Source: Gemmatimonadaceae bacterium
Lineage (GTDB): Bacteria; Gemmatimonadota; Gemmatimonadetes; Gemmatimonadales; Gemmatimonadaceae
NCBI GenBank assembly: GCA_051859245.1
Contig: JBHYGA010000001.1
Coordinates: 1,149,722 to 1,213,721, forward strand
Length of the DNA stretch: 64,000 nucleotides
Direction of reading: 5' to 3'
A model generated the notes under the pieces. The model did not search any database and was not told where the DNA came from. It was given only the letters and a program-made list of their open reading frames with translations. Made by a program: the position numbers and the translations under genes. This document shows, piece by piece, positions 38,123 to 61,071 of the stretch. The first letter of the stretch is position 1. Each line of letters opens with the position of its first letter.

Positions 38123-38227
38123 ACGAAAGAAACCGATCGCGTTGGCGTACGTAAGGGAGCAGATCGCGGCCGGGCGAGACTTCGCTGGCGCACGTTGGCG
38201 GTACGGGACCACCTGACCGGGGGAGCA

Positions 38228-39076: not shown

Positions 39077-39096
39077 TGCGCGCTGCGGGTGCGTCA

Positions 39097-42377: not shown

Positions 42378-42473
42378 ATTGAGCGCTGGTTCGGCAACCC
42401 CGCCGGACCACTGCTTGTCTTGTTCGCATCCGCGCCCTCGCGCGGAGTGACGCTTCCGTTTTCCGCTCTGATC

Positions 42474-43479: not shown

Positions 43480-44274
43480 TTATGGCGTCGAGTCCACCAC
43501 GTTTGCGCGTGCCTGGGGCAGCGCCGGAACACGCAAGCGCTGTCCGGCACGCACATCGTCGTCGCGCAACCCGTTGAGTTGCCGCAAGACGTCAATCGAG
43601 CTGTTGTACTGCCGCGCAATCGACGTGAGTGTTTGTCCTCTTTCGATCACGTGTGTGGTGTAGCGCTCCGGTTGCACGGGCGCGATACCTGAACGTTGCA
43701 CACGAGCCGCGTCGTCGCTCACACGACGACGTTCGCGTGTTGCCACCTGCGCGATGGCGCTGGTCGCGGCGATGGCGCCGTCGTCTACGCGCAGCGTGAC
43801 CGCGCGATCCGGTGTGCGCAGCAGTACGCGCTTCGTGTCGCTCGTTGAGTCCACAGACATGACGAATGCCGATTCGTAGGGCCAGGACTCCAGATACAGG
43901 GCGAGCGGTCCACCATCGACGGGTCGCAGGAGCGTGACCGGTGGCGCGCCCACGTAGAGCAGTCGGCGATCGGTTGCCACCAGCAGGCCATGCGAGAGGC
44001 GCCAGAGGTCGGACGGTCGACGCTGCGAGGCAAAGGTTCGGGCCAGCACGCGCTCACCGGACAGGAGCAGTGCGCTCAGCTCGCGCTCGGCTGTTTCCCG
44101 GGCAATGCGTCGCGTGCCGATGGGCGAAACCACGCTGGCCGCGGCGGTTAGGCCGATGACGAGCGCCACCATCGAGGCGCGAGAGAGCGCCAGGACGAGC
44201 CGGCGCATGGGCCGGTTGGGCCGGGTTCGACTGAACGGATCGACGGGCAGGGGTTCCCGCGCGGGAGCGGTCAT
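43480..44274 (-). CDS. Membrane-anchored protein with a PH-like domain and C-terminal LysM
   Basis: N-terminal TM; GLLVATDRRLLY; HVIERGQTLTSIARQY...LRQLNGL...GQRLRVP. Confidence 0.8.
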   Translation of the reverse strand: MTAPAREPLPVDPFSRTRPNRPMRRLVLALSRASMVALVIGLTAAASVVSPIGTRRIARETAERELSALLLSGERVLARTFASQRRPSDLWRLSHGLLVATDRRLLYVGAPPVTLLRPVDGGPLALYLESWPYESAFVMSVDSTSDTKRVLLRTPDRAVTLRVDDGAIAATSAIAQVATRERRRVSDDAARVQRSGIAPVQPERYTTHVIERGQTLTSIARQYNSSIDVLRQLNGLRDDDVRAGQRLRVPALPQARANVVDSTP

Positions 44275-44318
44275 AGCGGCAAGCTAGGCGGTCTGGCCGG
44301 TCTGAAGAAAGGAAAAGC

Positions 44319-44350
44319 TTGACATTTCCGCGTTGCCAATACGTATTAGC
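44319..44350 (+). promoter_or_regulatory. sigma70 -35 (TTGACA, 44319-44324) with a LacI-type operator GCCAATACGTATTAGC (44335-44350) over the expected -10 region
   Basis: Consensus -35; near-perfect palindrome with central CG and AATA/TATT arms, directly upstream of a LacI-family gene. Confidence 0.75.
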
Positions 44351-44383
44351 ACCACGCAGCGGCGCATTTTCTTCATCCCTCCC

Positions 44384-45448
44384 ATGCCTCCCGCACACAA
44401 ACCGCCTTCAGCCCGAGTGACCATTCGCGACGTTGCCGTGCGCGCTGGGGTGTCCCAGCCGACGGCGTCGCTGGTGCTGGGCAAGCATCCGCGGGCTCGA
44501 GTAGCGCCGGCCACCCGCGAGCGCGTCATCGCCGCCGCCCATGCCCTCGGCTACCGACCGAACGTGGTCGCACGGTCGCTGGTGCACGGGCGCTCGTTTG
44601 CGCTGGGCGTGGTGGTGCCCGATCTGCGAAATCCCTTCGTGATGGATGTGGTGGCGGGTGCAGAGCGTGTCGCGTCGTCGGCGGGTTACGCGGTCCTTTT
44701 GTGCGACCAGTCAGCGCGACCGGCGGCGGCGCACCTTGAAACGCTCCTGGCACGCCAGATCGACGGCGTGCTGCTGGACGCTGCAGGTGCCGCCGCTCTC
44801 CCTGATGATGCGCTGCGCGGTGTGAACGTGGTGCTGATCGATGAGCCGGCGGATCGTTGGCCTGGTGTGGCGACCGACGCGCGCGCGGCAGGCCGACTCG
44901 CGGCGGAGCACCTGCTCGATCTTGGCCATCGAACGTTTGCGTTCATCGGGCCCGCCGCCGATGTGCACGCCTATCGCATGCGCGAGCGGGGCTTTGCGGA
45001 AACGGTGCGCGCCGCGGGTGTGGCCATGCCAAGCGAGCGGTGGCGGCGTGAACCCGCCACCGTGGCGGGAGGGCAGCACGCCATGCGCGCGCTGCTGGCG
45101 TTGCGGCCACGTCCGACCGCGGTGTTCTGCGCCAATGACCTGATCGCCATTGGGGCTGTCAAGCAGTGCCTTACGCAGGGTGTGTCGCTGCCTGACCAGC
45201 TGTCAGTGGTTGGCTGCGACGACATTGAAATGGCGCGGCTGATTACGCCCGAGCTCACCACGATTGCGATCCCGGCGCGAGAACTCGGCGCACGCGCTGC
45301 ACGACTCTTGTTGTCGTACATCGAACATCGTGACGATCCACCCGATCCCGCGACCGTCGCCGCGCGTCGCGCTCTGTCGCGCGCATTGCCGGTGCGCCTG
45401 GTGTCGCGTGCCTCAAGCGCTGTGGCGCCTGCAGGAGCCGTGTCGTGA
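44384..45448 (+). CDS. LacI-family transcriptional regulator
   Basis: TIRDVAVRAGVSQPTASLVL HTH, LGYRPN, PTAVFCAND, LSVVGCDD, PELTTI. Confidence 0.95.
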   Translation: MPPAHKPPSARVTIRDVAVRAGVSQPTASLVLGKHPRARVAPATRERVIAAAHALGYRPNVVARSLVHGRSFALGVVVPDLRNPFVMDVVAGAERVASSAGYAVLLCDQSARPAAAHLETLLARQIDGVLLDAAGAAALPDDALRGVNVVLIDEPADRWPGVATDARAAGRLAAEHLLDLGHRTFAFIGPAADVHAYRMRERGFAETVRAAGVAMPSERWRREPATVAGGQHAMRALLALRPRPTAVFCANDLIAIGAVKQCLTQGVSLPDQLSVVGCDDIEMARLITPELTTIAIPARELGARAARLLLSYIEHRDDPPDPATVAARRALSRALPVRLVSRASSAVAPAGAVS

Positions 45449-46473
45449 GCGATCGGCCGTCTGCCATCATCACGGGAACCGGCCACGCGCTGCCGTCACG
45501 ACGCGTGACCAATGCAGAGCTGAGCGCGCAACTCGGCGAAGACATTGCACCGTTCGTGTCGGGAACGCTCGGCATTGATGAGCGCTGGTGGTGTGCCGAT
45601 GGGGAAAGCACCGCTGATCTCGCGGAACAGGCCGGACGTGCCGCGATGCGCGCGGCTGGCGTGGAGCCGAACTCGATCGATCTGCTCATCGTTGCGACGG
45701 ACACGCCAGAGTATGTGTCGCCGGCCACGAGCTCTGAAGTGCAGGGACGGCTCGGATGTACACGCGCTGGCACGTTTGATCTCAACGCCGGATGCGCGGG
45801 CTTTGTGACGGCGCTCGATGTGGCGTGGAAGTATCTGCGTGCTGATGACCGATACCAGCGCGTGCTCGTGATCGGCGCGTACACCATGTCGAAGTGGCTT
45901 GACCCGCGCGACAAAAAAACGATCACGATTTTTGCTGATGGAGCGGGCGCCGTGGTGCTGGAGCGCGGCTCGCGTGATGGAATATTGACGAGCGAGTTGT
46001 ACGCCGACGGCTCGTTGTCGCGCGATATGGGCGTGTTCGCCGGCGGTTCGCACGAGCCGATTACTGCGCGCGTGCTGGAAGACGGCACGCGCAATCGTTT
46101 GCGTTTTGTGCGCAAGTATCCGGCCTCCGTGAATGAAGAAGGGTGGCCTCGCATTGTGCGGTCGGTGCTCGCGCGCGCTGGTGCGGAGCCGCGCGATGTG
46201 CAGCTGTGGTTCTGGACGCAGGTCAATCGCTCCACGATTGTGGAGGTGATGCGGCGGCTCGAGGTGCCGATGGAACGCGCGCACACCATCATGCACAAGT
46301 GGGGTTACACCGGATCCGCGTGTTTGCCAATGGCGCTTGATGACGCCGTGCAGGCCGGGCGGTTGCACGACGGCGACCTCATTGTCTTTACCGGGTCGGG
46401 CGCCGGGCTGGCGATGGGTTCGCTGGCCATGCGCTGGCGTACGTCGCGCGAGAAGGCGGGATCCGCACCATGA
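45445..46473 (+). CDS. FabH/KAS III-fold enzyme with non-canonical catalytic residues
   Basis: GTGHALP, DLNAGCAGF (Cys), IFADGAGA; but WTQVN and WGYTGSA replace HQAN and GNTS. Confidence 0.88.
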   Translation: MSDRPSAIITGTGHALPSRRVTNAELSAQLGEDIAPFVSGTLGIDERWWCADGESTADLAEQAGRAAMRAAGVEPNSIDLLIVATDTPEYVSPATSSEVQGRLGCTRAGTFDLNAGCAGFVTALDVAWKYLRADDRYQRVLVIGAYTMSKWLDPRDKKTITIFADGAGAVVLERGSRDGILTSELYADGSLSRDMGVFAGGSHEPITARVLEDGTRNRLRFVRKYPASVNEEGWPRIVRSVLARAGAEPRDVQLWFWTQVNRSTIVEVMRRLEVPMERAHTIMHKWGYTGSACLPMALDDAVQAGRLHDGDLIVFTGSGAGLAMGSLAMRWRTSREKAGSAP

Positions 46474-48125
46474 CGCAGTCGCTCGTGCATGTGCTGCTGG
46501 AGCGGGCGGCCGCCACACCAGACGGTGTGGCGTACCGCGTGCTGTCTCGTGGCGCCACCGCGCTGGGTGAAACGATGACGTGGCGCGAGTGGGCGCGCAG
46601 TGCAGAACGTGTGGCGCGCGCATTGATCGCACGCGGTGTGGCGGTGGGTGATCGCATTCTCATCTTCTCCGACAATCGCGCGCTGTGGCCCATTGTGGAT
46701 CTTGGTGCGCTGATGGCCGGTGCGGTGAGCGTTGGTGCGTATCCCACCAGTGCCGCGGCGCAGGTGGCATCGCAACTGCGCGATTCTGGCGCACAGGTTG
46801 TATTTGTTGACTCCGCCGCTCGGCGAAACATCGTGCGCAGCGTGCGCGATCAGCGCGCGTTCAATCCCGCCGTAGTGGTGGATGCACCGCACGCTGCAGA
46901 CGCGCGTGAGCCGTACGAATCGGACTGGACGAGTTTTCTGCGTGAGGGCGACGTTCACCGGGACGCCCTGGATGAGCATCGCCGCGCGCGATTGCAGGCG
47001 CTCACGCTCGATCAGGATGCCATGCTCATCTACACCTCGGGTTCTACGGGCGAACCCAGAGGCGCGCGCATTTCGCATCGGTACCTGCTGGCGTCGGCGC
47101 AGAGCATTGCGCACACGTTGGGACTACAGCCGAGTGACTCTGGCGTGTCATTTTTGCCGTTCTGTCACGCCGCTGAGCGCGTCTTCGGCATGTGCGTGCG
47201 CTTGCACGTGGGCATGAGTGCGGTGCTGGTCGAGGCACCGGAGGATGTGTTTACGGCGACGCGTCTCTTTGAGCCGACCGTGTTTGGCGGATTGCCAAGA
47301 CTCTTTGAAAAGTTGGCGCGTGCGGCCCAGCAAGCGCACACCGGGGCTGACGCTGCGCGCGCGATCCACGCGTTGCTGGGCACGCGTTGCCGGATTGCTA
47401 CTTCAGGTGGCGCTGCGCTCGACGCATCCGTCGCGGAAGCATTACACGCGGCGGGCCTCACGGTGCTCGGCGCGTACGGGCAAACGGAGCACCTGTGTAT
47501 TGCGATGAACAGACCTGACGCGGCGCGCTTTGATACCGTTGGTCCGGTGATGCCGGGAACAACGGTGCGCATCGCCGACGACGGCGAGCTATTGGTGCAG
47601 CGTAGTGCGCTCACCTTCTCCGGATACTTTGAAAAGCCGGCGGAAAGCGAGGCGGCATTTACGGCCGACGGTGAGTGGTTACACACTGGCGATCTCGCGG
47701 AACAGGACGCCGATGGCTCGTTGCGCATTGTGGGGCGTCGCAAGGAGTTGATCGCGCTCTCCACGGGAAAAAAGGTGGCGCCGCTACCGATTGAAGCGGC
47801 GTTGAGTGCGTCACCATTGATTGCCTCGGCCATGTGTTATGGCGAAGGACGTCGTTTTCTCTCGGCCGTGCTGCAGTTGCAGCCGGAGGCCGTGCGGGCG
47901 CTGCCGTCGATACGCTCGGCGGTGCAAGCCCACGTCGACACGGTCAACCATGCACTCTCGCGAACCGAACAAGTGCGCGCTTTCGTGATTGCCACCGCGC
48001 CATGGACGGTGGAAACGGGCGAACTCACACCAACACTCAAGCTCAAGCGACCTGTGATCACTGCGCAGTTTCAAGACGCACTGGATGCCCTGTATGCCGA
48101 ATCGTCAGGCGCGGTGATGACATGA
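46470..48125 (+). CDS. AMP-dependent acyl-CoA synthetase (long-chain FadD-like)
   Basis: IYTSGSTGEPRG, AYGQTE, WLHTGD, GRRKELI, ELTPTLKLKR. Confidence 0.92.
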   Translation: MTQSLVHVLLERAAATPDGVAYRVLSRGATALGETMTWREWARSAERVARALIARGVAVGDRILIFSDNRALWPIVDLGALMAGAVSVGAYPTSAAAQVASQLRDSGAQVVFVDSAARRNIVRSVRDQRAFNPAVVVDAPHAADAREPYESDWTSFLREGDVHRDALDEHRRARLQALTLDQDAMLIYTSGSTGEPRGARISHRYLLASAQSIAHTLGLQPSDSGVSFLPFCHAAERVFGMCVRLHVGMSAVLVEAPEDVFTATRLFEPTVFGGLPRLFEKLARAAQQAHTGADAARAIHALLGTRCRIATSGGAALDASVAEALHAAGLTVLGAYGQTEHLCIAMNRPDAARFDTVGPVMPGTTVRIADDGELLVQRSALTFSGYFEKPAESEAAFTADGEWLHTGDLAEQDADGSLRIVGRRKELIALSTGKKVAPLPIEAALSASPLIASAMCYGEGRRFLSAVLQLQPEAVRALPSIRSAVQAHVDTVNHALSRTEQVRAFVIATAPWTVETGELTPTLKLKRPVITAQFQDALDALYAESSGAVMT

Positions 48126-48607
48126 GTTCGTCCAACTCGGTGCGCGCGTGGGCGCTGCGAGCGCTCGTGATTGGTGTGGTGTGTATTGCACTTGCCTACG
48201 CCAGCGCATTTCTGCCGCAGCCCTATTCGCTGGCGGGACCGTGGCTGATGGCCGTGATGATGCCGGTCGCGATGTTCGCCATGATGACGCTCGGCGCGGT
48301 GCGCGACGTACGCGGGCTTGGCCCGCTTGCAGTGCCGTTCGTGCTTGTGCTTGGTTTGGTAGCCGGCGGATTTGTTGTAGCGCTCGCACTGCCACCGGAA
48401 ACGGTTGATACGCCGCTGCTGCTGGGGCTGCCGAGACGCGCCGCGGTGATTCTGTTTGGTGTGGGACTGTTGCCGTTGTTTGTGTTGCCGATTGTGTACG
48501 CACTCACGTTCGATCGGCTCACGCTTGATGATGACGACATTGCGCGGGTCCGTGCCGCGCGCCTGCCCGAAACAACATCGATTGGCGCACGCGAGGGCAC
48601 GCACTGA
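48122..48607 (+). CDS. Small 4-TM membrane protein, probable symporter accessory subunit
   Basis: Four hydrophobic helices; translationally coupled to both neighbours. Confidence 0.7.
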   Translation: MSSSNSVRAWALRALVIGVVCIALAYASAFLPQPYSLAGPWLMAVMMPVAMFAMMTLGAVRDVRGLGPLAVPFVLVLGLVAGGFVVALALPPETVDTPLLLGLPRRAAVILFGVGLLPLFVLPIVYALTFDRLTLDDDDIARVRAARLPETTSIGAREGTH

Positions 48608-50127
48608 TGCGGGTTCCTGACATGCTTGCACTGCTGCAAACGAGTGCATTGCCAACGCTCAAGCAACCGGTGATCGCAGCGGTTGCGGTGGCGTATTTCG
48701 TAGTGGTAGCCGTGATCGGTACCTGGGCGTCGCGCCGCACGCGATCGGCGGCTGATTTTTTTGTCGCCGGCAAGGGCATTGGCCTGTTCACGCTGGCGAT
48801 CGCATCGATGGCGGCCACGCTCTCTGGATTTGCGTTCATTGGCGGACCCGGACTTGTGTACACCGTTGGTCTTGGCGCGGTGTTCATTGTGCTGCCCGCC
48901 GCGCTCACCAACTCCATGGGCGCGTGGGTCATGGCCAAGCGGTTGCGTCTGCTCGCCGAGGTGCGCGAGATGATGACGATACCCGACGCTATTGGCGCGC
49001 GGTATCAATCGCGCGCGGCGCAGGGGCTGTCCGCGGTTGCGATCATCATTGCGGTGATCGGTTACATGGCCACCAACATTCTGGCGCTTGGGTTGGTGAT
49101 TGACGCGATCTTTGCGCCTGGTCTCGCCGCATCCATCTGGATTGGCACGATCATTGTCCTCGCGTATTCGGTGTCGGGAGGAATTCTTGCCGGCATCTAC
49201 AACGATGTGTTTCAGGGCACGCTGATGGCGGTGGCCTCGGGCGTGGTGTTCTGGTACGCACTTGAAGCGGGCGGCGGGTTTGCCGGCATGTCGCGTACGA
49301 TTCTCGCCACCGACGCCGGGTTACTGTCGCCGTGGGGCAAGCTTACGCCGCTCGCGGCGTTGTCTTTTTACTTCGTGTTTGGCCTCGGCTCGCTGGGGCA
49401 GCCGCACGTAGTTCACAAGTTCTTCATGCTGCGTGATGCGCGCCGTCTCAAGTGGTTTCCACTCTTGATGACCGGCGCGTTGTTCGTGTCGCTGCTGCTC
49501 TTTATTGGCGTTGGGCTGGCGATGAAGGCGCTCGTACTGAGCGGCGCCACACCGGCGCTGCGCATTGCGGATGACGCTACGCCTGTCTTTCTGCTCAACT
49601 TCACTCCGGTGCCGGTGGCGGCGATCGTGTTCGCGAGTGTCGCGGCGGCCATCATGAGCACGGTGAACTCGTTCATGAGTATCGGTGCCGCGGCGTTCAC
49701 GCATGATCTGCCGGTTGCGTTTGGTACGCGACTGAGCAACGAACTCAAGTGGGGCCGCATCTGGACGGTGGTAATCGCGCTGGTCGCGGCCGTCGTGGCA
49801 CAGGCGTCGGGCACGCTCGTGGCCTTTCTCGGGATTTTCGGATGGGGGCTGTTTGCCTCCACGCTTGTACCCGCGCTGGCGGTGGGACTGAACTGGGCAG
49901 GCGCCACGCGTGCTGGTGCCGTGAGCTCAATCGCGACGGGACTTGTCGTTACGCTGGCCCTCGAGACGCTCGCGTTTCAGAAGGTGTTCACGTTCCCGTC
50001 GGGTGTGACGGCGTCGGCGATCGCGCTGGTGTCATCGTTGCTCGTGTTCTTTGTGGTGTCGTGGCTTACGCGCAGTACGGCTGCGGCCACCCTTTCGTCA
50101 GACGTGCGCGCCGTCATGGAGGCATGA
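48607..50127 (+). CDS. Sodium:solute symporter family transporter
   Basis: DFFVAGK, SGFAFIGGPG, TIPDAIGARY, NDVFQG, LGQPHVVHKF, AAIMSTVNS. Confidence 0.93.
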   Translation: MRVPDMLALLQTSALPTLKQPVIAAVAVAYFVVVAVIGTWASRRTRSAADFFVAGKGIGLFTLAIASMAATLSGFAFIGGPGLVYTVGLGAVFIVLPAALTNSMGAWVMAKRLRLLAEVREMMTIPDAIGARYQSRAAQGLSAVAIIIAVIGYMATNILALGLVIDAIFAPGLAASIWIGTIIVLAYSVSGGILAGIYNDVFQGTLMAVASGVVFWYALEAGGGFAGMSRTILATDAGLLSPWGKLTPLAALSFYFVFGLGSLGQPHVVHKFFMLRDARRLKWFPLLMTGALFVSLLLFIGVGLAMKALVLSGATPALRIADDATPVFLLNFTPVPVAAIVFASVAAAIMSTVNSFMSIGAAAFTHDLPVAFGTRLSNELKWGRIWTVVIALVAAVVAQASGTLVAFLGIFGWGLFASTLVPALAVGLNWAGATRAGAVSSIATGLVVTLALETLAFQKVFTFPSGVTASAIALVSSLLVFFVVSWLTRSTAAATLSSDVRAVMEA

Positions 50128-50128
50128 C

Positions 50129-50566
50129 ATGGAGTTTGAAGCAATCACCGTCGGAGTCACATCCGAATGGAGCAAGACGGTCTCAGACGCGGATGTGATG
50201 CAGTACGCGAGCATCACGGGAGACTTCAATCCGGTGCATGTAGACGAAGCAGCGGCGGCTGCAAGTCGTTTTGGTGGACGCATCGCGCACGGCATGCTCA
50301 CCGCGGGGTTCATTTCGGCGGCCATTGCCAATGGCGTTCCCGGTCCCGGTGCGATCTACCTGTCGCAAACGCTCGCGTTTCGTCAACCGGTGCGCATCGG
50401 TGACACGATCACCGTGCGCATCGAGGTCGTAGAGATCATGGCACGTACGCGACGCGTGCGATTGACCACGGTGTGTCGCAACCAGAATGGCACCGTTGTG
50501 CTCGACGGTGAAGCAGTGGTGTTGGTCCCTCCTCCATTTTCTCCTCCCACCTCCGGAGACGTCTGA
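50129..50566 (+). CDS. MaoC-family (R)-specific enoyl-CoA hydratase (PhaJ-like)
   Basis: YASITGDFNPVHVD (Asp/His dyad), IAHGML, PGPGAIYLSQTLAFRQPVRIGD. Confidence 0.9.
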   Translation: MEFEAITVGVTSEWSKTVSDADVMQYASITGDFNPVHVDEAAAAASRFGGRIAHGMLTAGFISAAIANGVPGPGAIYLSQTLAFRQPVRIGDTITVRIEVVEIMARTRRVRLTTVCRNQNGTVVLDGEAVVLVPPPFSPPTSGDV

Positions 50567-53121
50567 TGTCGCCCGCAATGTCGTTGATCACTCGCGCGAA
50601 CACTCGCGTCTGGCGCGCTGTGTGCACTCGTGCGCTCGTGTTGTGTACTGCGGTGATGCTCACCCCCGCGCTCGCCCAGGCACAAAGCGGAACGCTGGCT
50701 GGCGTGGTTGCCGACAGCGCCGGCAGGCCGCTGGCCGGCACGCAGGTGGGTCTGATGGGCACGCGATTCGCCGTCACGGCTGGAACCGATGGTCGATATC
50801 GCATCACCGGCATTCCGGCGGGCACGTACGAGGTGCGAGCGCAGCGTATTGGCTCCGCGGTGCGCACGTTTCCGGGCACGGTAATTCGCGCCGGCGAGGA
50901 AACACGCCTTGACGTGCAGCTTTCGTCGAGTGCGTTGCAGATCGGCAGCTACGTGGTGTCTGCATCGCGTCGCGTGGAGAAGATTACCGACGCGCCGGCC
51001 ACCGTGTCGCGCATTACGGCGGACATGATTCGCAATACGGTTGGCAACTCGTTCACGGCCGCCCTGAAAGATGTGAAGGGCGTAGACTTTTTTCAGACCG
51101 GTATCGCGTCGGCGGGCATCAACGCGCGTGGCTTCAACAGCGCGTTCAACAATCGCATGTTACAGATGGAGGACAATCGCATCGCCGTGCTTCCGGAGAA
51201 CGGGTTGCCGGTTGGCGTGTTCACCACCATCCCGAAAGTAGACATCGCGGGAGTGGAAGTATTGATCGGCCCAGGTGCGGCGCTGTATGGCCCTGATGCC
51301 TCGAACGGTGTGGTCACACTGTTGAGCAAAGACCCGAAGGAATATCAAGGCACCATTCTTGAGTTCAGCGTGGGCGGAAACTCAATCAGCCGTTTTGGTG
51401 AACAGACCCCGGGCACCGTCTCCTTCAAAAACGTGCAGGGTCGGCACGCGGGCGTCCTGCTGAACGGGCGACTGGGATACAAAGTCACCGGCGAGTTGAT
51501 TGACGCCTACGATTGGCAGAATGTGAATCGGTATGCCGCGGTGGCGCCGAGCACCACGCCGTCGCCGGAGATTGGTATTGACTGGAATACGGACTACCTG
51601 CGGGGCGGTGGCGCGCTGGTGTGGTACTTCAACAATGGAGCGCGGCTCGAGTATCAGGGTGGTGCGAGCAAGTCGAACGGCGTTGGCATTACGAGCGCGG
51701 GCCGTAATCAGCTCAAGGATTGGGGCTACTGGAATCAGCAGGTGCGTTTTACCAGTGACCGCTTTTTTGCGCAGGCATACGCCACGCGTTCGTTGTCGGG
51801 ACAGACGTATGCGATCAACGGCTTCTCCACCAACCGTTTGGCGGCGCGCTTTAACGGCATCAGCGACGATTCCGTGAAACAGGCGTCCGCGTTTCCTGCA
51901 GACGGTCGTTTGATGGCCGCCGAGGCACAGCACAACTTTACCGTGCCGTCGTTGCTCAACACGCGTGTGGTGTGGGGTGTGCAGGCGCGTCGTGATCAGG
52001 TGTCATCCAAGCGCGTCTGGCTTGAAGACGCGATTACGGGCGAAGATCTCGAGCTGCAGCAGATCGGTGCATACGCCCAGACAGAAACGCCGATCAATGA
52101 GCACACGAAGCTTGTGCTTGGTGCGCGCTATGACAAACCCGAGTTCTACGACAATCAGTTTTCACCCAAAGCGGCGCTGTTGATTTCGCCGAGTGAGAAC
52201 AACACGTTCCGCATCACGTACAATCGCGCGTTCAAGTCGCCCTCGATTCTGCAGACCAGCTTCTACTTCCGCGACTTCGCACCGCTGGTTGGAGTGTTTG
52301 GCAATCGTGATGGTATTCAGGTCAAGAACGCGGCGGGCACGGTGCTTCGCACGCTTGATCCCGTGGAACCGGAGTCGAACAATACGATTGAGCTTGGCTA
52401 CAAGGGTGTGATCGGCGACAAACTGTTTCTTGAGGTGGCCGGCTGGGTGGCGCGCTACGAGAGTTTCCTGAGTCCGCTGGTGGTGGTGGCCAACCCGTTC
52501 GCTGGTGCTTCCGCGTCGTTCGCGTTTAACGCACGCACAAACACCAAGTACACAAACGCCGCTGGCGTTGATCAGATCGCGCTCACGTATTTCAATCTCG
52601 GCAAGGCCACGCTGTCTGGTATCGATGCCGGCTGGCGTTACCTGATCACGCCGTCGCTGACGACCAGCGGTACGATGTCCTTCATGCAGCTGGACTCGAT
52701 TATCCGCGCGCCGGGTGATCCGGCGGAAGCCACGTCGCTGAACAGCCCGAGTGCCAAGTTTACGGTGGGTATGGAGAGCACCGCGCTTCCGTTTGGCTCC
52801 TTCGGTGGCTTTACAATGCGATTCGTGAAGGACTATCAGTTCCTGTCTGGTGCGCACAACGGTCGCATTCCCGGGTTGCTTGGCCTGGATTTCAACGTGG
52901 GTTATCGTCTGCCGTCGCAGCGCGCGCAGATCAACCTGTCGGTGCAGAACGCGTTCGTATGCACGAGCGGTACGAGCACCGCGCCGGCCTTCCTGAACGC
53001 GGCGGTGCCATCAGGGTACCGTCGTGGCTGGGGCTGCGGTATCGGTCGTGAGCACATCGAACTGTTGAACATGCCCGCCATTGGTTCCATGGCATTCCTT
53101 GGTGTTCGCTTCGATCTTTGA
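50566..53121 (+). CDS. TonB-dependent outer-membrane receptor
   Basis: Signal peptide, carboxypeptidase-like N-domain, VVSASR...DAPATVS, EVLIGPGAALYG plug, beta-barrel, C-terminal FLGVRFDL. Confidence 0.93.
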   Translation: MSPAMSLITRANTRVWRAVCTRALVLCTAVMLTPALAQAQSGTLAGVVADSAGRPLAGTQVGLMGTRFAVTAGTDGRYRITGIPAGTYEVRAQRIGSAVRTFPGTVIRAGEETRLDVQLSSSALQIGSYVVSASRRVEKITDAPATVSRITADMIRNTVGNSFTAALKDVKGVDFFQTGIASAGINARGFNSAFNNRMLQMEDNRIAVLPENGLPVGVFTTIPKVDIAGVEVLIGPGAALYGPDASNGVVTLLSKDPKEYQGTILEFSVGGNSISRFGEQTPGTVSFKNVQGRHAGVLLNGRLGYKVTGELIDAYDWQNVNRYAAVAPSTTPSPEIGIDWNTDYLRGGGALVWYFNNGARLEYQGGASKSNGVGITSAGRNQLKDWGYWNQQVRFTSDRFFAQAYATRSLSGQTYAINGFSTNRLAARFNGISDDSVKQASAFPADGRLMAAEAQHNFTVPSLLNTRVVWGVQARRDQVSSKRVWLEDAITGEDLELQQIGAYAQTETPINEHTKLVLGARYDKPEFYDNQFSPKAALLISPSENNTFRITYNRAFKSPSILQTSFYFRDFAPLVGVFGNRDGIQVKNAAGTVLRTLDPVEPESNNTIELGYKGVIGDKLFLEVAGWVARYESFLSPLVVVANPFAGASASFAFNARTNTKYTNAAGVDQIALTYFNLGKATLSGIDAGWRYLITPSLTTSGTMSFMQLDSIIRAPGDPAEATSLNSPSAKFTVGMESTALPFGSFGGFTMRFVKDYQFLSGAHNGRIPGLLGLDFNVGYRLPSQRAQINLSVQNAFVCTSGTSTAPAFLNAAVPSGYRRGWGCGIGREHIELLNMPAIGSMAFLGVRFDL

Positions 53122-53125
53122 TGGC

Positions 53126-54157
53126 ATGCAAACCGTGCTGCACATGGTGTGGGCTCTTGCCGTTGCTGGAATACCACCGGCAACGGCAGCCGCGCAGTCC
53201 CTGGGCGAACCAATGATGCGGGCGGTCGCCGTGATGGATACACTGCCGGGCAAAACCGAAACGGGTCGGCACACCTTCGGTGACGTGAGTCGGAACTGGC
53301 GGTTGTACGAACCGTCAAACAAAAGCGCCGATGCGGCTCCAGGCATGTTGGTACTGCTGCACGGATGTACGCAGGATGCAGCCGATCTCATGCGTGGAAC
53401 ACGCGCGGAGGCGTTCGCGGAGCGTGCGGGGATGATCGTGCTGGCGCCTGAACAGGAGGCGTCAGCGCACCCCCAGAAGTGTTGGAACTGGTATGATCCG
53501 CGTCACCAGAACCGTGACGCGGGTGAGCTCGCGTGGATGTCGTCGGTGATTTCGATGATCGTGAAGCGCTACGGCGTAGACGCATCGCGCGTGCACGTGG
53601 CTGGTATCTCGGCGGGAGGTGCCATGGCTCAGCTCTTTGCCACCGCGTATCCGGAGCAGGTGGCATCGCTCACGGTGGCCAGCGGTGTGGCTGTTGGCGC
53701 TGCGGCCACGGTGCCCGATGCGTTGCAGGCCATGCGAAATGGTCCACGCGAGGGCACGACCACGTCGTCTGTGGTGTTGACGCGTATGGGGCAACGAAAA
53801 CGCGCGATTCCGCTGTTGGTCATGCACGGTGCGAGCGACGCAGTGGTCAGTCCACGAAACGCCGATGCACTTATGAAGCAGTGGAGCGATGTTCTCGATG
53901 CGTTGGCAATCGCGCGTCCCCGCGAGCGATTGCAAGGTGATAGTGGTACCGGGAAAACCGCGCAGATGCGCGCTGAAGTTGACGCGGCTGGTCGTGCCTG
54001 GCTTGTGGACTGGCGCGTGCGCGGTGTGGGACATGCGTGGTCGGGCGGTGCCAAAGAAGGGACCTACACTGATCCGGAAGGAGCGGATGCAACGGCCATG
54101 TTGTTTGCGTTCATTGCTGAGCAGGATTCGTTCGTTGCCAAGAGTCGAGCGCCGTGA
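53126..54157 (+). CDS. PHB depolymerase-family esterase (LpqC-like), probably exported
   Basis: LLHGCTQ oxyanion motif, CWNW, GISAGG nucleophile, HGASD, GHAWSGG. No C-terminal substrate-binding domain. Confidence 0.88.
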   Translation: MQTVLHMVWALAVAGIPPATAAAQSLGEPMMRAVAVMDTLPGKTETGRHTFGDVSRNWRLYEPSNKSADAAPGMLVLLHGCTQDAADLMRGTRAEAFAERAGMIVLAPEQEASAHPQKCWNWYDPRHQNRDAGELAWMSSVISMIVKRYGVDASRVHVAGISAGGAMAQLFATAYPEQVASLTVASGVAVGAAATVPDALQAMRNGPREGTTTSSVVLTRMGQRKRAIPLLVMHGASDAVVSPRNADALMKQWSDVLDALAIARPRERLQGDSGTGKTAQMRAEVDAAGRAWLVDWRVRGVGHAWSGGAKEGTYTDPEGADATAMLFAFIAEQDSFVAKSRAP

Positions 54158-55689
54158 GCCTTGTCTTTGATCCGCTCGCCTGGTGGGCGTCGCACGACCC
54201 GGCTCGGATCGCGATCACCGATCCATCTCGCGGCGCGAGCTACAGTTATGGTGCGCTCGATCAGCAGGCCACGCAGTGGAGCGCCGCGTTGGCGCAGCTC
54301 GGCGTTGTGGCGGGCGATCGCGTCGCAATCCTCGCCCAGAATCGCCTGGATTTTGTGCCCGCGCTCACGGGTGCGAATCGACTCGGCGCGTCTCTCGTGC
54401 CGCTCAACTGGCGACTCAGCGCCGGCGAGCTTGCGCGTGTGTTGTGCGACGCGTCGCCCAGGGTGCTACTTGGCGAAGATCGATTTCGCGCGCTTGCAGA
54501 AGAGGCGGTGCGTCTCGCCGATGGCGTGAATCCCGCGTGGTGCGATCTTGATTTCGACGCACCCGCGTTGCTGCAGCGAGCGTCGCCCATCGGGCAACGC
54601 TCGCGTGTTGATGGAAATAGCGCAGCATTGATGCTCTACACGTCGGGAAGCACCGGGACGCCCAAGGGCGTGGTGATGGCGCACAGGCAACTGCACTGGA
54701 ACGCGGTGGCCACGAATGTGGCGTGGGAGCTTGGGCCGAATGATGTGGGGCCGCTCGCGTCGCCGCTCTTTCACACGGGTGGCTGGGGTGTGTTCACATT
54801 GCCGCTGCTGTTCTGTGGAGGACGCATGGTGATGTTTGATAGCTTCGAACCCGATCAGCTGTTGCACACCATGCGCGAGCAATCGATAACCGTGGCGTTT
54901 GGTGTGCCAACGCAGCTGGACATGTTGCGCGAACGACCGGCGTGGGGCGAACCGCTGCCTTCCTTGCGGTGGTTTATTGCCGGTGGCGCGCCGTGTCCGC
55001 AGCGCGTTCGAGATGCCGTGTGGGATGCCGGATACAACTTCCGGGAAGGCTATGGCCTCACGGAGTGTGGGCCCAACTGCTTCACCACCACCAACGCAAT
55101 TGCGCGAGCGAATCCAGGGACGGTCGGTCATCCGCTGCCGTTCCTTGAGATGCGACTCACGAACGATGATGGTGCCATCGTTTCGGCCAACGAAGTCGGA
55201 GAGCTGCAGCTGCGAGGGCCGCAGCTGTTCGATGGCTACTTCAACGCACCGGCGCTCACGGCTGAAGTCATGACTGCCGATGGCTGGTTGCGCACAGGTG
55301 ATCTGGCCCTGCGTCGCGACGATGGCGTGTGGGCCATTCGCGGACGTCGCAAAGAGATGTACATCTCCGGTGGCGAAAATGTATTTCCGGGCGAGGTAGA
55401 AGCGGCATTGCTTGGCTGCACTGGTGTGGCCGAGGCTGCAGTGATTGGCGTCGCGGATGAACGCTGGGGTGAAGTGGGCTGCGCGCTGGTGGTGCGTGCC
55501 ATTGGGCACGACCATCTCGATGATGCGGCGATCATCGCTGCGGCGCGCGAACGACTCGCGGGATACAAGGTTCCGAAACGTGTGGTCTTCGCCGATCATG
55601 TGCCCAAGCTTGGATCCGGCAAGATTGATCGTTCGGCGGTGCGCGCGTTGATCGCGGCGCGGAACAGCGCCACCGCGGCACACGCATGA
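54154..55689 (+). CDS. AMP-dependent acyl-CoA ligase (MenE/FadD-like)
   Basis: LYTSGSTGTPKG, PLFHTGG, EGYGLTE, RTGD, ISGGENVFP, GSGKIDR. Confidence 0.92.
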   Translation: MSLVFDPLAWWASHDPARIAITDPSRGASYSYGALDQQATQWSAALAQLGVVAGDRVAILAQNRLDFVPALTGANRLGASLVPLNWRLSAGELARVLCDASPRVLLGEDRFRALAEEAVRLADGVNPAWCDLDFDAPALLQRASPIGQRSRVDGNSAALMLYTSGSTGTPKGVVMAHRQLHWNAVATNVAWELGPNDVGPLASPLFHTGGWGVFTLPLLFCGGRMVMFDSFEPDQLLHTMREQSITVAFGVPTQLDMLRERPAWGEPLPSLRWFIAGGAPCPQRVRDAVWDAGYNFREGYGLTECGPNCFTTTNAIARANPGTVGHPLPFLEMRLTNDDGAIVSANEVGELQLRGPQLFDGYFNAPALTAEVMTADGWLRTGDLALRRDDGVWAIRGRRKEMYISGGENVFPGEVEAALLGCTGVAEAAVIGVADERWGEVGCALVVRAIGHDHLDDAAIIAAARERLAGYKVPKRVVFADHVPKLGSGKIDRSAVRALIAARNSATAAHA

Positions 55690-56291
55690 AATCGGAAACG
55701 GTGGACGCCGCCGTTGCGAGCACCAAAGGCGCGACCGTTCGTGGCACGCTCGCGTTCTTGCACAAACTTGTGGGTGCGGGCGGTGTGCAGGCGGTGCTTG
55801 ATGCCTTGCCGGCCGCGCTCGCCACAGAGTTGGCCACGGTGCAACCGACCGACGATGTGCCATACGCGCGATTGGTGGCGTTGTGGCAGGCCGCCGACGC
55901 TCAACTGCGCGAACGACACCCGCATTGGGCCGAACTGGGCGGGCGTTTTAACATCGAGTCGCTCGGTTTGCAGTTGTATGGCGGCATTCTTCGCAAACCC
56001 ACGCCAAAGGATTTCCTCACCCAGAGCGTCTCGTTGTTCCGGCTGTTCTACGCGCCGGGAGACATGCAGGTGGTGCAGGAAGACCCGGGAAGCGCCGTGC
56101 TGCGACTGGTTGGGTTTGATCCGGTGCACGCCGTGTTCTGCCGTCGGCAGGTTGGCGGATTGGCGTGCGCACTGGAGCTCGCAGGCGGCGTGTCGCCGGT
56201 GGTGCGTCATGTGCGGTGCACCTTGCAGGGCGATGTGTTCTGCGAATGGGAGATGCGCTGGTCGGAGCGCGAGCCACGCGGCTCCACGTAG
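55686..56291 (+). CDS. V4R/H-NOX-like ligand-binding protein (DUF2378-like)
   Basis: TKGATV...GGVQAVL, VPYARLV, and C-terminal FCRRQ...RCTLQGDVFCEWEMRW V4R pattern. Confidence 0.65.
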   Translation: MKSETVDAAVASTKGATVRGTLAFLHKLVGAGGVQAVLDALPAALATELATVQPTDDVPYARLVALWQAADAQLRERHPHWAELGGRFNIESLGLQLYGGILRKPTPKDFLTQSVSLFRLFYAPGDMQVVQEDPGSAVLRLVGFDPVHAVFCRRQVGGLACALELAGGVSPVVRHVRCTLQGDVFCEWEMRWSEREPRGST

Positions 56292-56340
56292 TCGGTTCGC
56301 CTCTGGTGCTCAGCTGGTGATTTGACGAGCGTTAGGAGAC

Positions 56341-56628
56341 ATGCCAACCACGCCCCGTCACTCACCCAAATCGCGAGCCGATCGTTCGCCTGCGCCGCGC
56401 CCTGCGGCCACGCAGATGGATCTGTTTCCCGAACGACCGGTGGTCGAAGTGCTCGATCCCAGAACGGTCGTTGGACCGCGCACGGCGACGTCGGCGGTGA
56501 TCCGTGTACGATTGCGTTCCGTCGAAGCGCCGCATCTCGTGTTTCACGATCGACACGGATGGTATTGCGACACGCATGGTGCGACGTGCGAAGCCGTAGC
56601 GGTGGCGCGCGCCGAGCCGGCGCTGTGA
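56341..56628 (+). CDS. Small hypothetical protein with a QMDLF motif and a His/Cys cluster
   Basis: AGGAG SD; its stop overlaps the next start (GTGA); FHDRHGWYCDTHGATC. Confidence 0.75.
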   Translation: MPTTPRHSPKSRADRSPAPRPAATQMDLFPERPVVEVLDPRTVVGPRTATSAVIRVRLRSVEAPHLVFHDRHGWYCDTHGATCEAVAVARAEPAL

Positions 56629-58631
56629 ACGCGCCGTTGTGGCAGCCGGATGCGAAACAACGCGACGCCACGCAGTGGGCTGACTTCACCCGCTGGCTCG
56701 CGCATCGTGGTCTGATCGCGGACGCCAGTATGGGCAGTCATGCACTGTGGACGTGGAGTGTTTCGCAGCCCGAGCAGTTTTGGGAATCGCTCTGGCAGTA
56801 CTGCGATATTCTCGCGGATCACAATGCGTCGGGGCGACAGCACGACGCGGTGCTGGTTGGCGGACATCGAATGGCTCCGCCAGACGCCGCGCTTGGACCG
56901 CACTGGTTTCCGGGAGCGCGACTGAACTTCGCGGAACATATGTTGCGCCGGCGTGATGAGCACACGGCCATCGTCAGTTGGACGGAGCAAGGCCAACGGT
57001 GCACACTGTCGTACCGTCAGCTCGCGGAGCAGGTGGCGCGCTGCGCGTCGGCACTTCGCGCCGTGGGGGTGGTAGCCGGTGATCGTGTGGCTGGCTGGCT
57101 GCCCAATGTACCCGAGGCGGTGATTGCGATGCTCGCGGCCGCATCAATCGGTGCGATCTGGTCGTCGTGTTCGCCCGACTTTGGTGTGGACGGTGTGCTT
57201 GACCGTTTTGGCCAGATTGAGCCGACGGTGCTTGTCGTATCCGATTGCTATCAGTACGCGGGAAAAACCATTGATGTGCTCGCGCGCGTGGCGCAGGTCA
57301 ACAGGCAACTGCCGTCGTTACGCGCCACATGGGTGGTGAAAGGCGCCGACGTTCCGGCAGATATTGCGGCGGTTGACAACGCGGCGCATTGGCATGACGT
57401 GCTCGCGGTGCACACGAACGCCGACCTCACGTTCACGCGTCTGCCGTTCGATCACCCGCTGTACATACTCTATTCTTCGGGCACAACCGGCCTGCCCAAG
57501 TGCATTGTGCACGGGGCCGGTGGCACCTTGCTGCAACATCTGAAAGAGCATGTGTTGCATACGGACCTGCGCGCGACCGACACCATGTTCTACTTCACCA
57601 CCTGTGGATGGATGATGTGGAATTGGTTGGTCTCGTCGCTTGCCGTGGGCGCCACCATTGTGCTGTATGACGGTGCGCCATTGCCGGCGAATGATCCGTC
57701 CGTTCTGTGGCGCATGGCCGCGCAGGAGGGCGTGTCTGTGTTCGGCACGAGCGCCAAGTATCTCTCCGCGCTCGAGAAGGCAGGCGTTCGTCCGCGCGAG
57801 CGCGAGGATCTGTCACGTTTGCGTTGTGTGCTGTCCACCGGCAGTCCACTGGCGGAACCGTCGTACGATTTTGTCTACCGCGACATTTCGCCGCACGTTC
57901 AGTTGGCCAGCATTAGTGGCGGAACGGACATTGTCTCCTGTTTTGCGCTCGGCGATCCAACGGGCCCCGTGCATCGCGGCGAACTCCAGATCCGCGGACT
58001 TGGCATGGCGGTTGATATCTGGTCGGAGCGCGGCGAACCCGTTCGCGGAGAGGCCGGCGAACTCGTTTGCACGGCGCCGTTTCCGAGCATGCCCGTGGCG
58101 TTCTGGAATGACGCGAACGGCGCGAAGTATCGGGCCGCGTATTTCGAGCACTTCCCAGGTGTCTGGCGTCACGGCGACTGGGCCGAAATCACACGCAACG
58201 ATGGTTTGATCATTCACGGTCGCAGCGATGCGACGTTGAATCCTGGTGGTGTCCGCATTGGCACGGCCGAGATCTATCGTCAGGTGGAGAGCCTGCCGGA
58301 GATACTGGAGAGTGTTGTCACCGAGCACACCGTGACGGACCGCTCCGGTACAGAGGCGAGGGTGGCACTTTTTGTTCGACTCTCGCCTGGCGTGGCGCTC
58401 GACGCCGAGCTGGCCGCAAGGATTCGTGGGTGCATTCGGGCGGGCGCCAGTCCGCACCATGTGCCGCGCGTGATTGGAGCCGTACCGGATATTCCGCGTA
58501 CCCGAAGCGGAAAAATCAGTGAACTGGCCGTGCGTGAGGTCATTCACGGTCGTCCGGTCAAGAACGCCGACGCACTCGCGAATCCCGAATCGCTGGCGGC
58601 GTTTGCGGGCCATCCGGCGCTCGCTGAGTAA
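56625..58631 (+). CDS. Acetoacetate--CoA ligase
   Basis: PLWQP, WFPGARLNFAE, WSSCSPDFG, YSSGTTGLPKCIVHG, TTCGWMMWNW, SISGGTD, GRSDATLNPGGVRIGTAEIY. True start GTG 56625. Confidence 0.95.
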   Translation: MNAPLWQPDAKQRDATQWADFTRWLAHRGLIADASMGSHALWTWSVSQPEQFWESLWQYCDILADHNASGRQHDAVLVGGHRMAPPDAALGPHWFPGARLNFAEHMLRRRDEHTAIVSWTEQGQRCTLSYRQLAEQVARCASALRAVGVVAGDRVAGWLPNVPEAVIAMLAAASIGAIWSSCSPDFGVDGVLDRFGQIEPTVLVVSDCYQYAGKTIDVLARVAQVNRQLPSLRATWVVKGADVPADIAAVDNAAHWHDVLAVHTNADLTFTRLPFDHPLYILYSSGTTGLPKCIVHGAGGTLLQHLKEHVLHTDLRATDTMFYFTTCGWMMWNWLVSSLAVGATIVLYDGAPLPANDPSVLWRMAAQEGVSVFGTSAKYLSALEKAGVRPREREDLSRLRCVLSTGSPLAEPSYDFVYRDISPHVQLASISGGTDIVSCFALGDPTGPVHRGELQIRGLGMAVDIWSERGEPVRGEAGELVCTAPFPSMPVAFWNDANGAKYRAAYFEHFPGVWRHGDWAEITRNDGLIIHGRSDATLNPGGVRIGTAEIYRQVESLPEILESVVTEHTVTDRSGTEARVALFVRLSPGVALDAELAARIRGCIRAGASPHHVPRVIGAVPDIPRTRSGKISELAVREVIHGRPVKNADALANPESLAAFAGHPALAE

Positions 58632-59860
<1,229 letters not shown>

Positions 59861-59861
<1 letters not shown>

Positions 59862-61054: not shown

Positions 61055-61071
61055 AACGCTGTCGCCACGCC

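Follow-up and report, generated by a model that had tools for sequence, protein, structure and literature searches.

A LacI-controlled, TonB-dependent receptor-centered operon of Gemmatimonadaceae predicted to serve ester uptake and catabolism, with (R)-3-hydroxyalkanoate esters as candidate substrates

In a 64,000-nucleotide stretch of a Gemmatimonadaceae genome (assembly GCA_051859245.1, contig JBHYGA010000001.1, positions 1,149,722 to 1,213,721; hereafter the window), we describe a block of ten genes that very probably forms an operon for the uptake and catabolism of some ester. The block encodes a LacI-family repressor, a protein of the β-ketoacyl-ACP synthase III (KAS III, FabH) fold, two AMP-forming acyl-CoA ligases, a small membrane protein, a sodium/solute symporter (SSS), a hydratase of the MaoC family, a TonB-dependent receptor (TBDR), an esterase of the poly(3-hydroxybutyrate) (PHB) depolymerase type and a protein of H-NOX/V4R fold (called V4R-like below). 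On balance, we lean toward a more specific assignment, namely an autoregulated catabolic operon through which exogenous (R)-3-hydroxyalkanoate esters would be taken up and broken down by way of CoA thioesters. To judge from the encoded protein families, its most likely substrates would be PHB and its oligomers released by other bacteria.

Listing of open reading frames (ORFs), combined with Pfam and NCBIfam profile scans, placed all ten genes on the forward strand between 44384 and 56291 (Table 1). Read directly from the sequence, each of the nine junctions is an overlap or a gap of at most 4 nt (in order: GTGA, ATGA, ATGA, TGATG, a 1-nt gap, TGATG, a 4-nt gap, GTGA and ATGA), which bears out the closely spaced, co-oriented run of ten genes reported in the initial annotation, a first reading of the DNA alone. 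The gene families named there were likewise upheld by Pfam and NCBIfam matches, except for the "V4R" label of the last gene, whose best Pfam match in the window copy was HNOB (PF07700) at E=0.096, with 13 bits against a gathering score of 25.5.

Table 1. Predicted genes and regulatory elements of the ten-gene block and its flanks, in window coordinates
Feature	Coordinates	Strand	Evidence or remark
TTGACA, candidate -35 box	44319-44324	+	Perfect match; base 44319 is the first base of the locus as delimited
18-bp palindrome, candidate LacI-family operator overlapping the promoter	44334-44351		Palindrome search
LacI-family repressor, helix-turn-helix plus periplasmic-binding-protein-like effector domain	44384-45448	+	Pfam LacI 49.7 bits, Peripla_BP_3 127 bits
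KAS III (FabH)-fold protein, Cys117-Thr258-Tyr288	45445-46473	+	ACP_syn_III and ACP_syn_III_C domains
AMP-forming acyl-CoA ligase 1, FadD11/long-chain type, AMP-binding_C_3	46470-48125	+	Pfam 222 bits
161-aa multi-pass membrane protein, family-less	48122-48607	+	ORF, hydrophobic sequence
SSS symporter, PutP/PanF-like	48607-50127	+	Pfam SSF 160.5 bits against a cut-off of 22.8
PhaJ-type (R)-specific enoyl-CoA hydratase (MaoC)	50129-50566	+	MaoC_dehydratas (PF01575) 99.1 against 27 bits
TBDR with N-terminal CarboxypepD_reg, plug and barrel	50566-53121	+	Pfam matches
Single-domain PHB-depolymerase-type esterase, catalytic domain type 1, signal-like N-terminus	53126-54157	+	NF050058, TIGR01840, PF10503
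AMP-forming acyl-CoA ligase 2, medium/long-chain or aryl-acid type	54154-55689	+	Pfam 267 bits
201-aa H-NOX/V4R-fold protein	55686-56291	+	AlphaFold2 (AF2) model and Foldseek; no Pfam match at E<=0.001
Downstream set with acetoacetate-CoA ligase	56625-62298	+	
Upstream deoxyhypusine-synthase-like gene	42420-43460	+	Homospermidine-synthase-type match 111 bits, under cut-off
LytTR-type response regulator ORF with the esterase gene that follows it	37541-40131	+	Regulator ORF 511 aa as called, receiver domain from residue 235

The esterase scored 250.2 bits against the 150-bit cut-off of NF050058, the profile of the extracellular type-1 short-chain polyhydroxyalkanoate (PHA) depolymerase catalytic domain, with 143.6 against 107.85 bits for TIGR01840 and 117 against 23 bits for PF10503 (Esterase_PHB). 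Its best PDB match was 8DAJ (1.1e-57, 199 bits), far ahead of an acetylxylan esterase (62 bits, 4e-16) and a feruloyl esterase (59 bits, 5e-15), and by score the enzyme is thus of the PHB-depolymerase type, as first proposed. The 8DAJ entry is LtPHBase, a single-domain PHB depolymerase of Lihuaxuella thermophila that degrades PHB, PHA copolymers, poly(lactic acid) and polycaprolactone (PMC9601781). The window esterase carries, in order, HGCTQ, GISAGG, SDAVV and GVGHAWSGG, corresponding to the four PHBase motifs given in that source. Both enzymes are single-domain and share these motifs, and the signal peptide of LtPHBase probably has a counterpart in the N-terminus of the window enzyme; they are about 40% identical by a hand count over the first 102 aligned columns, LtPHBase differing in coming from a Gram-positive thermophile and having no comparable operon context in the available portion of PMC9601781. 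Across 22 orthologs of the window esterase, residues H79, G80, C81, Q83, S162, D238 and H303 were invariant, and all 22 passed the NF050058 cut-off, matching the profile at E<=1e-10. By eye, the N-terminus is hydrophobic and ends in AAA-QS, and Sec-type signals or lipoboxes can be read in the orthologs; after the His motif, the orthologs have just some 30-40 residues left, with neither a linker nor a C-terminal substrate-binding domain. By these features, the esterase is a single-domain and probably exported enzyme. It had first been argued that an esterase lacking a binding domain probably acts on oligomers; that step fails, since LtPHBase has the same architecture and yet attacks the polymer and other polyesters (PMC9601781), and oligomer specificity therefore does not follow from the missing domain.

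Among 401 genomes of the phylum, NF050058 was matched over its cut-off in 89. The top 18 matches scored 222-303 bits and the next one 205 bits; these 18 consist of the window copy, copies lying beside V4R-like matches and one copy (genome G209) on a contig apart from the V4R-like match. The host genome holds a single strong Esterase_PHB gene. Outside the phylum, the esterase relatives comprised three Methylobacterium loci at 42-43% identity, none with the surrounding block. A siderophore-esterase reading of the TBDR and esterase pair was dropped, the Pfam "Esterase" match being just 1.7e-6; siderophore-receptor matches of the TBDR covered only the plug region and fell far under their cut-offs.

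The MaoC protein found its best PDB matches in the (R)-specific enoyl-CoA hydratases 5CPG (3.5e-35) and 1IQ6 (3e-25), and its GDFNPVH motif retains the Asp-x4-His spacing of the PhaJAc catalytic dyad, given as Asp31 and His36 in PMC4823750; its designation as PhaJ-like is thus confirmed on both counts. The same source describes a catabolic use of PhaJ in Haloferax mediterranei, where (R)-3-hydroxyacyl-CoA derived from PHA is dehydrated into β-oxidation (PMC4823750). PhaJ1 of that archaeon thereby plays the part that we propose for the window enzyme, with the difference that the Haloferax system mobilizes its own granules and needs no uptake, whereas profile searches of the whole host genome (4.70 Mb, 99.9% complete) returned no PhaC_N match and no class III PHA synthase. 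The best match to 3-hydroxybutyrate (3HB) dehydrogenase in this genome reached 200 bits against a cut-off of 307 bits, so the absence of both enzymes, claimed at first for the window, extends to the whole genome at curated cut-offs. Given the missing synthase, the organism appears not to store PHA; with neither PHA of its own nor a recognizable 3HB dehydrogenase, a route through CoA esters and PhaJ would stand in for the classical Bdh route, and 3HB, if used at all, would most simply be used as its CoA ester through PhaJ. The genome has four strong 3-hydroxyacyl-CoA dehydrogenase matches. The 3HB-oligomer hydrolase profile PF10605 had no match in the genome, a result that is uninformative because the profile was also silent in 14 of 14 control genomes.

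Both transporters belong to families of uptake systems. The TBDR has a signal-like N-terminus ending in ALAQAQ, and its best NCBIfam match was the TOL_0244 family at 118 bits, far under the cut-off of 645; against the SusC/RagA model TIGR04056 it scored 43.2 bits, with a cut-off of 368. The combination of a regulator, a TBDR, an exported hydrolase and an inner-membrane transporter is that of the polysaccharide utilization loci (PULs) of Bacteroidota and of the proteobacterial carbohydrate utilization loci containing TBDRs (CUT loci), the latter typically with a LacI-type regulator. The window block shares this logic, and the "PUL-like" description is fair as a functional analogy; it does not hold as membership, as the ten genes include no SusD and no glycoside hydrolase family, the TBDR lies far under the SusC/RagA cut-off, and enzymes of CoA-thioester metabolism are present instead. 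The symporter scored 135 bits with TIGR00813, and 174 and 156 bits with PutP and PanF, both under the equivalog cut-offs; it is the most conserved gene of the block, at 88-95% identity within the genus. The 161-aa membrane protein had no Pfam match, and its look-alikes in the atlas searched were Gemmatimonadota hypothetical proteins only. Its gene always adjoins the symporter gene and is lost together with the SSS and MaoC genes in four of 20 phylum-wide loci (see below), making its product a candidate accessory subunit of the symporter.

Immediately upstream of the block, the palindrome TGCCAATACGTATTAGCA occurs once in the window, against 0.01 occurrences expected by chance. The pattern TGNNAATACGTATTNNCA stands just 5' of the LacI gene in 10 distinct loci of other genomes (12 locus ids, with two pairs representing the same place), and also in 25 of the 53 metagenome loci having enough upstream DNA. 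When 11 upstream regions were aligned, with a mean column identity of 56%, the palindrome was the sole invariant block, which marks it as the phylogenetic footprint of a repressor site. The arrangement is that of a LacI-family repressor with a palindromic operator, the operator itself being predicted. For the repressor gene we chose the ATG at 44384, as the longest ORF, with a TTG start at 44333, would begin inside the operator. The TTGACA box recurs at the same position in 6 of the 11 aligned regions, and the -10 element, read by eye at 17-nt spacing, is weak (CGTATT). Of the single promoter/operator initially placed before the block, the operator is thus supported by a conserved LacI-type palindrome, and the promoter is represented by a good -35 box, a weak -10 element and a negative scan that is weighed below. 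In locus L060 (1239-1265; L numbers denote individual loci), the operator runs straight into a further, partial copy of itself (...TGCCAATACGTATTACCAAATACGTAT...), which may make this a tandem site.

The initial annotation had staked the locus on its genes co-occurring in other genomes, and the block does recur in the genus, across the phylum and in metagenome loci. Strong esterase matches (E<=1e-90) were found in 9 of 15 genomes of the same genus, the host included; the six genomes without one are 64-95% complete. All seven same-genus loci examined with their flanks had every gene that the contig could hold, in identical order. A search of the 401 genomes with the V4R-like protein gave 58 genomes with matches at E<=1e-5, 22 of them at E<=1e-45, and these 22, after setting aside the window and a locus already in the same-genus set, yielded the phylum-wide set of 20 loci. 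Here, the esterase adjoins the V4R-like gene in 16 of the 20, and the KAS III-like gene is also found in 14, with L062 and L072 beginning inside the block at a contig end. Four loci (L068, L073, L075 and L076) show a reduced form with LacI, the V4R-like gene, a TBDR and a distant ligase, and no esterase. Source names of the orthologs include Gemmatimonas phototrophica and Roseisolibacter agri. For the metagenome scan, made with the KAS III-like alignment, we took the best 80 of 370 relatives, and counted genes in those 22 loci whose sequence extends 9 kb or more downstream from the KAS III-like gene. The esterase and the TBDR were present in all 22 of these long loci, MaoC in 20, the symporter in 19, ligase 1 in 18, ligase 2 in 17 and the V4R-like gene in 14, the last two counts being limited by the 10-kb flank.

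The conservation data also bear on the idea that the ten genes form no functional unit and are neighbors held together by ancestry alone. Close genera do share the flanks as well (a deoxyhypusine-synthase-like gene and a LysM protein upstream, acetoacetate-CoA ligase and a dioxygenase set downstream), so that synteny within the family alone proves little. In distant genera, however, the genes outside the LacI-to-V4R interval are unrelated to the window flanks while the block persists, which places its boundaries where they had first been drawn. Together with the nine translationally coupled junctions, the single conserved operator and the loss or relocation of modules as units (the small membrane protein, symporter and MaoC genes lost jointly; the TBDR gene moved upstream in L122, L124 and L129), this leaves chance neighborhood with scarcely any probability in our estimation.

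Several side observations concern variation in these loci. A tandem pair of PHBase-type esterase genes is present in 7 of the 22 long metagenome loci (L111, L133, L138, L139, L144, L153 and L169); in L133 and L138, a plain signal peptide on one copy contrasts with a lipoprotein-like signal (...LAAC / ...LGAC) on the other. In L068 and L070, the TBDR and a distant AMP-ligase are accompanied by an Abhydrolase_1 hydrolase that replaces the PHBase-type esterase, and in L068 the same ORF also encodes an SDR domain. This type of module suggests a family of TBDR, hydrolase and ligase loci for different esters.

In the (R)-3-hydroxyalkanoate reading, the LacI-family repressor would sit on the 18-bp palindrome over the promoter and be freed by a metabolite of the pathway. 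The esterase, whose family is assigned, would cut 3HB ester bonds outside the cytoplasm, the TBDR would carry soluble oligomers over the outer membrane, and the symporter, with its small membrane partner, would move monomers or dimers over the inner membrane. One or both ligases would then form the CoA thioester, and the hydratase, assigned as PhaJ-type, would convert (R)-3-hydroxyacyl-CoA to enoyl-CoA, a direction for which Haloferax offers a precedent, leaving housekeeping β-oxidation to finish the enoyl-CoA. This scheme assigns no step to two conserved members, the KAS III-fold protein and the H-NOX/V4R-fold protein.

The same architecture could instead serve another ester, such as hydroxycinnamoyl (feruloyl or coumaroyl) esters, cutin- or suberin-type hydroxy-fatty-acid esters or dimers of (R)-3-hydroxy fatty acids. 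Here, the acid freed by the esterase would be activated by ligase 2, and its CoA ester would then be hydrated or dehydrated by the MaoC enzyme in a β-oxidative route. The ligases offer the main grounds for this alternative. The closest PDB relatives of ligase 2 are 8WEU and 8WEV (labeled "fatty-acyl-CoA synthase" and "feruloyl-CoA synthetase", 1e-90), followed by FadD13, and, as far as sequence relatedness can tell, this is the best evidence for a substrate other than PHB; the literature searched on 8WEV held nothing bearing on this locus. Ligase 2 has PRK06187 as its best NCBIfam match (387 bits against a cut-off of 476). Ligase 1 is long-chain or FadD11-like (275 bits with FadD11, far under the cut-off of 950), and its closest PDB relatives are the A-domains of carboxylic acid reductases and FadD5. 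LacI regulators and TBDRs are, moreover, typical of plant-glycan loci, the PDB relatives within Pfam Esterase_PHB include acetylxylan and feruloyl esterases, and genes for 4-hydroxyphenylpyruvate dioxygenase (HPPD) and a homogentisate-dioxygenase-like protein lie 2-5 kb downstream in this genus. LtPHBase itself is promiscuous (PMC9601781). Against another ester stand the far closer relation of the esterase to a proven PHBase than to acetylxylan or feruloyl esterases, the passing of the type-1 PHA-depolymerase cut-off by all 22 orthologs, and the best matches of the MaoC protein, which are short-chain PhaJ enzymes. The conserved block contains no glycoside hydrolase, ring-cleavage or aromatic-pathway gene, the HPPD set trails it only in close genera that share the whole neighborhood, and an SSS symporter would suit small hydrophilic acids and not long-chain or aromatic ones. 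Taking both sides together, we regard a different ester as a possible but rather unlikely substrate.

A number of observations nevertheless weigh against the (R)-3-hydroxyalkanoate assignment itself. Two ligases and a conserved KAS III-fold protein exceed the needs of a plain 3HB route, the relatives of ligase 2 point elsewhere, and neither ligase reaches an equivalog cut-off in NCBIfam. Monomers and dimers of 3HB are small enough for porins, so that a TBDR is not obviously required, and the effectors of LacI-family regulators are mostly sugars. The promiscuity of LtPHBase means that family membership does not fix the natural substrate, and no gene of the block evolves faster than that of the esterase, whose identity within the genus is 46-79%, compared with 79-95% for the TBDR. 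The small-membrane-protein, symporter and MaoC module is missing as a whole in 4 of the 20 phylum-wide loci (L057, L063, L064 and L066) and MaoC alone in two more (L060 and L074), which indicates that the PhaJ step is dispensable in some lineages. A consensus sigma-70 scan of 44000-59000 found no promoter-like site, being silent at TTGACA because the -10 element is weak. Finally, the branch to which the KAS III-fold protein belongs, described next, extends to other phyla, and its chemistry is therefore not specific to PHB.

The KAS III-fold protein carries the expected fold domains and had been introduced as a FabH-fold enzyme; the fold stands, and FabH function does not. It fell under the FabH cut-offs (TIGR00747, 207.1 against 292.1 bits; NF006829, 242.5 against 249 bits), and its alignment to 2EBD showed that Cys117 is kept, with the catalytic His replaced by Thr258 (PHQAN to WTQVN) and the Asn by Tyr288 (GNT to GYT). 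The Cys-Thr-Tyr combination is found in the window copy and all 20 orthologs, with the three positions invariant in the ortholog alignment (A2). Two true FabH genes elsewhere in the host genome (360.8 and 327 bits) are both Cys-His-Asn. A profile search of 1.84 billion representatives was headed by Cys-Thr-Tyr proteins, from 583 down to about 255 bits, and 132 aligned full-length sequences contained 19 with Cys-Thr-Tyr (the window copy included) and 101 with Cys-His-Asn. Source names place the former in Anaerolineales, Caldisericia, Saprospiraceae and the archaea Thermofilum adornatum, T. pendens and Infirmifilum uzonense. On this sampling, the Cys-Thr-Tyr proteins are a broad, unstudied sister branch of FabH; public annotations label the KAS III-fold gene "ketoacyl-ACP synthase III". 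Because the His and Asn needed for decarboxylative condensation are lost, the protein cannot, on its active-site residues, be a condensing enzyme or act as a KAS III. With the acyl-accepting Cys kept despite this loss, transacylase-type chemistry is indicated, and the protein is probably an acyl-S-enzyme transacylase. Precedent comes from CerJ and ChlB3, KS III-like acyltransferases that make esters (PMC9573744): as described there, they use the KAS III fold for acyl transfer through acyl-S-Cys and not for Claisen condensation, the mode we propose here, although their triad is still Cys-His-Asp and they belong to antibiotic biosynthesis, whereas the window protein has Cys-Thr-Tyr and lies in a catabolic operon. 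As a side observation, L071 (15099-16103) and the matching region of L069, both from one family, carry a second, very divergent KAS III-fold gene at 28% identity with Ser at the Cys position, and there an additional ligase gene separates the KAS III-like gene from ligase 1.

The acyltransferase precedent could also be turned toward a biosynthetic or lipid-remodeling cluster, in which an acyl product would be assembled by the KAS III-fold enzyme, the two ligases and the dehydratase. The TBDR, the symporter and the esterase would then just happen to lie alongside or have a recycling function. Natural-product and lipid pathways do combine enzymes of these three kinds (KAS III fold, AMP-ligase and MaoC dehydratase), and CerJ and ChlB3 make esters, as noted. 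However, the window protein lacks the condensation residues, profile scans of the block found no acyl carrier protein, reductase, thioesterase or exporter, both transporters are of uptake families, the esterase is, by its N-terminus, probably exported, and a LacI-type repressor governs the unit as in catabolic operons. We accordingly consider a biosynthetic role very improbable.

Within the catabolic frame, an energy-saving and so far undescribed route of polyester use may be imagined, which we put forward as a doubtful, speculative extension. Oligomers of 3HB would be imported whole by the dedicated TBDR and symporter and activated with CoA only once, at the free carboxyl end; next, instead of being hydrolyzed, the internal esters would pass their acyl groups to CoA, with the Cys-Thr-Tyr enzyme passing through an acyl-S-Cys intermediate and releasing 3HB-CoA units for PhaJ and β-oxidation. 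The H-NOX/V4R-fold protein would, in this scheme, act with LacI as a sensor of the oligomer or acyl-CoA. Were this route true, the TBDR would be the first one specific to a polyester, and a widespread orphan branch of FabH would gain a function.

The last gene of the block had been called a V4R protein, a label that sequence matches support weakly: among 24 orthologs, 18 matched HNOB (best 3.4e-5) and 16 matched V4R (PF02830, best 0.001). An AF2 model built from the 24-sequence alignment (pLDDT 88.9, pTM 0.85) gave 41 PDB matches at E<=0.001 in Foldseek, headed by H-NOX domains (TM 0.57-0.71) and followed by Bet3/TRAPP, and the fold is thus H-NOX-like in the first place. Residues C152, H175, C178 and C186 are invariant among the orthologs (alignment A1) and form a probable metal site. 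Look-alikes in the atlas were Myxococcota clusters, a minority of whose members carry DUF2378 or V4R. The protein is probably a ligand sensor or carrier, and a sensing or carrier role tied to the esterase product is plausible; in the reduced loci, the LacI and V4R-like genes remain adjacent. Separately, at least five genomes of another Gemmatimonadota family (G373, G330, G280, G403 and contig 2 of G209) encode a distant V4R-like paralog (21-30% identity) no more than about 2 kb from a lower-scoring esterase of the PHBase type; the rest of the operon is absent there. The loci of these distant paralogs (L170-L176) also include G409 and G062, and two of the paralogs have a Pfam DUF2378 match (2e-6 to 3e-8).

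Downstream of the block lies a set of genes for a true acetoacetate-CoA ligase (AACS; 932 against 639 bits), HPPD (456 against 277 bits), a 397-aa cupin protein that, despite 84-96% conservation in relatives, matches homogentisate 1,2-dioxygenase weakly (38 against 510 bits), and a class I/II aminotransferase. By their appearance, these genes would lead from tyrosine to acetoacetate, with a ring-cleavage enzyme of non-canonical type. We rejected AACS and HPPD as part of the operon core and treat the set as neighbors: a spacer of about 270-330 bp follows the V4R-like gene, the window has no second operator, and the set trails the block solely in close genera, where the upstream flank is shared too. 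That upstream flank, conserved in close genera, consists of the deoxyhypusine-synthase-like gene and the LysM protein, the latter encoded on the opposite strand. Farther upstream, the LytTR-type response regulator is directly followed by a GESAG-type esterase of the hormone-sensitive-lipase family (215 against 430 bits).

Compared with known systems, the block combines familiar parts in an unfamiliar way. Classical PHB utilization, reportedly as laid out by Jendrossek and Handrick in 2002, proceeds through a secreted multi-domain PhaZ, a 3HB-oligomer hydrolase, 3HB dehydrogenase and acetoacetate activation. The window block shares the type-1 catalytic domain, the Ser-Asp-His triad and the HGCxQ oxyanion motif, and the genus has an acetoacetate-CoA ligase gene next door for the activation step. 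It differs in that the esterase has neither linker nor substrate-binding domain, that the genome has no 3HB dehydrogenase reaching the cut-off, and that a single LacI-controlled operon brings together the TBDR, the SSS symporter, both CoA ligases, PhaJ, the Cys-Thr-Tyr KAS III-fold protein and the H-NOX/V4R-fold protein. In existing descriptions, PHB degraders secrete a depolymerase and import monomers. A parallel in logic is the PEG-degradation (peg) operon of sphingomonads, which includes an acyl-CoA ligase and an AraC regulator. In that operon, pegB encodes a TBDR, pegA and pegC serve periplasmic oxidation and pegD is a permease (PMC11644497); as far as that account goes, a non-carbohydrate polymer is handled through a TBDR, processing outside the cytoplasm and an inner-membrane permease, all in one regulated operon, as we propose here. 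The peg system differs in cleaving ethers oxidatively where the window block would hydrolyze esters, in its regulator family and phylum, and in having neither PhaJ nor a KAS III-fold protein. Our survey of the full-text literature, with subscription journals and supplements outside its scope, found no description of a TBDR-linked PHB-depolymerase operon, nor of an outer-membrane importer or dedicated operon for polyester fragments; the literature on Gemmatimonadetes, Gemmatimonadaceae or Gemmatimonas together with PHB held nothing bearing on this locus. Within the reach of this survey, the novelty lies in joining an esterase family already known to a TBDR-centered utilization locus.

Few storage compounds of bacteria are as abundant as PHB and related polyesters, which are also leading biodegradable plastics. 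Should the assignment to (R)-3-hydroxyalkanoate esters be correct, the Gemmatimonadota, a large and poorly cultured phylum of soil and freshwater, would gain a defined role in polyester turnover, and the block would supply a candidate TBDR and symporter for hydroxy-acid oligomers together with a Bdh-independent entry route through CoA and PhaJ. It would also give a testable context to the Cys-Thr-Tyr FabH-like branch, which is present in Chloroflexota, Caldisericia, Bacteroidota and archaea as well, and to the H-NOX/V4R/DUF2378-like family. As carriers of the block are named in public records, the hypothesis is directly testable.

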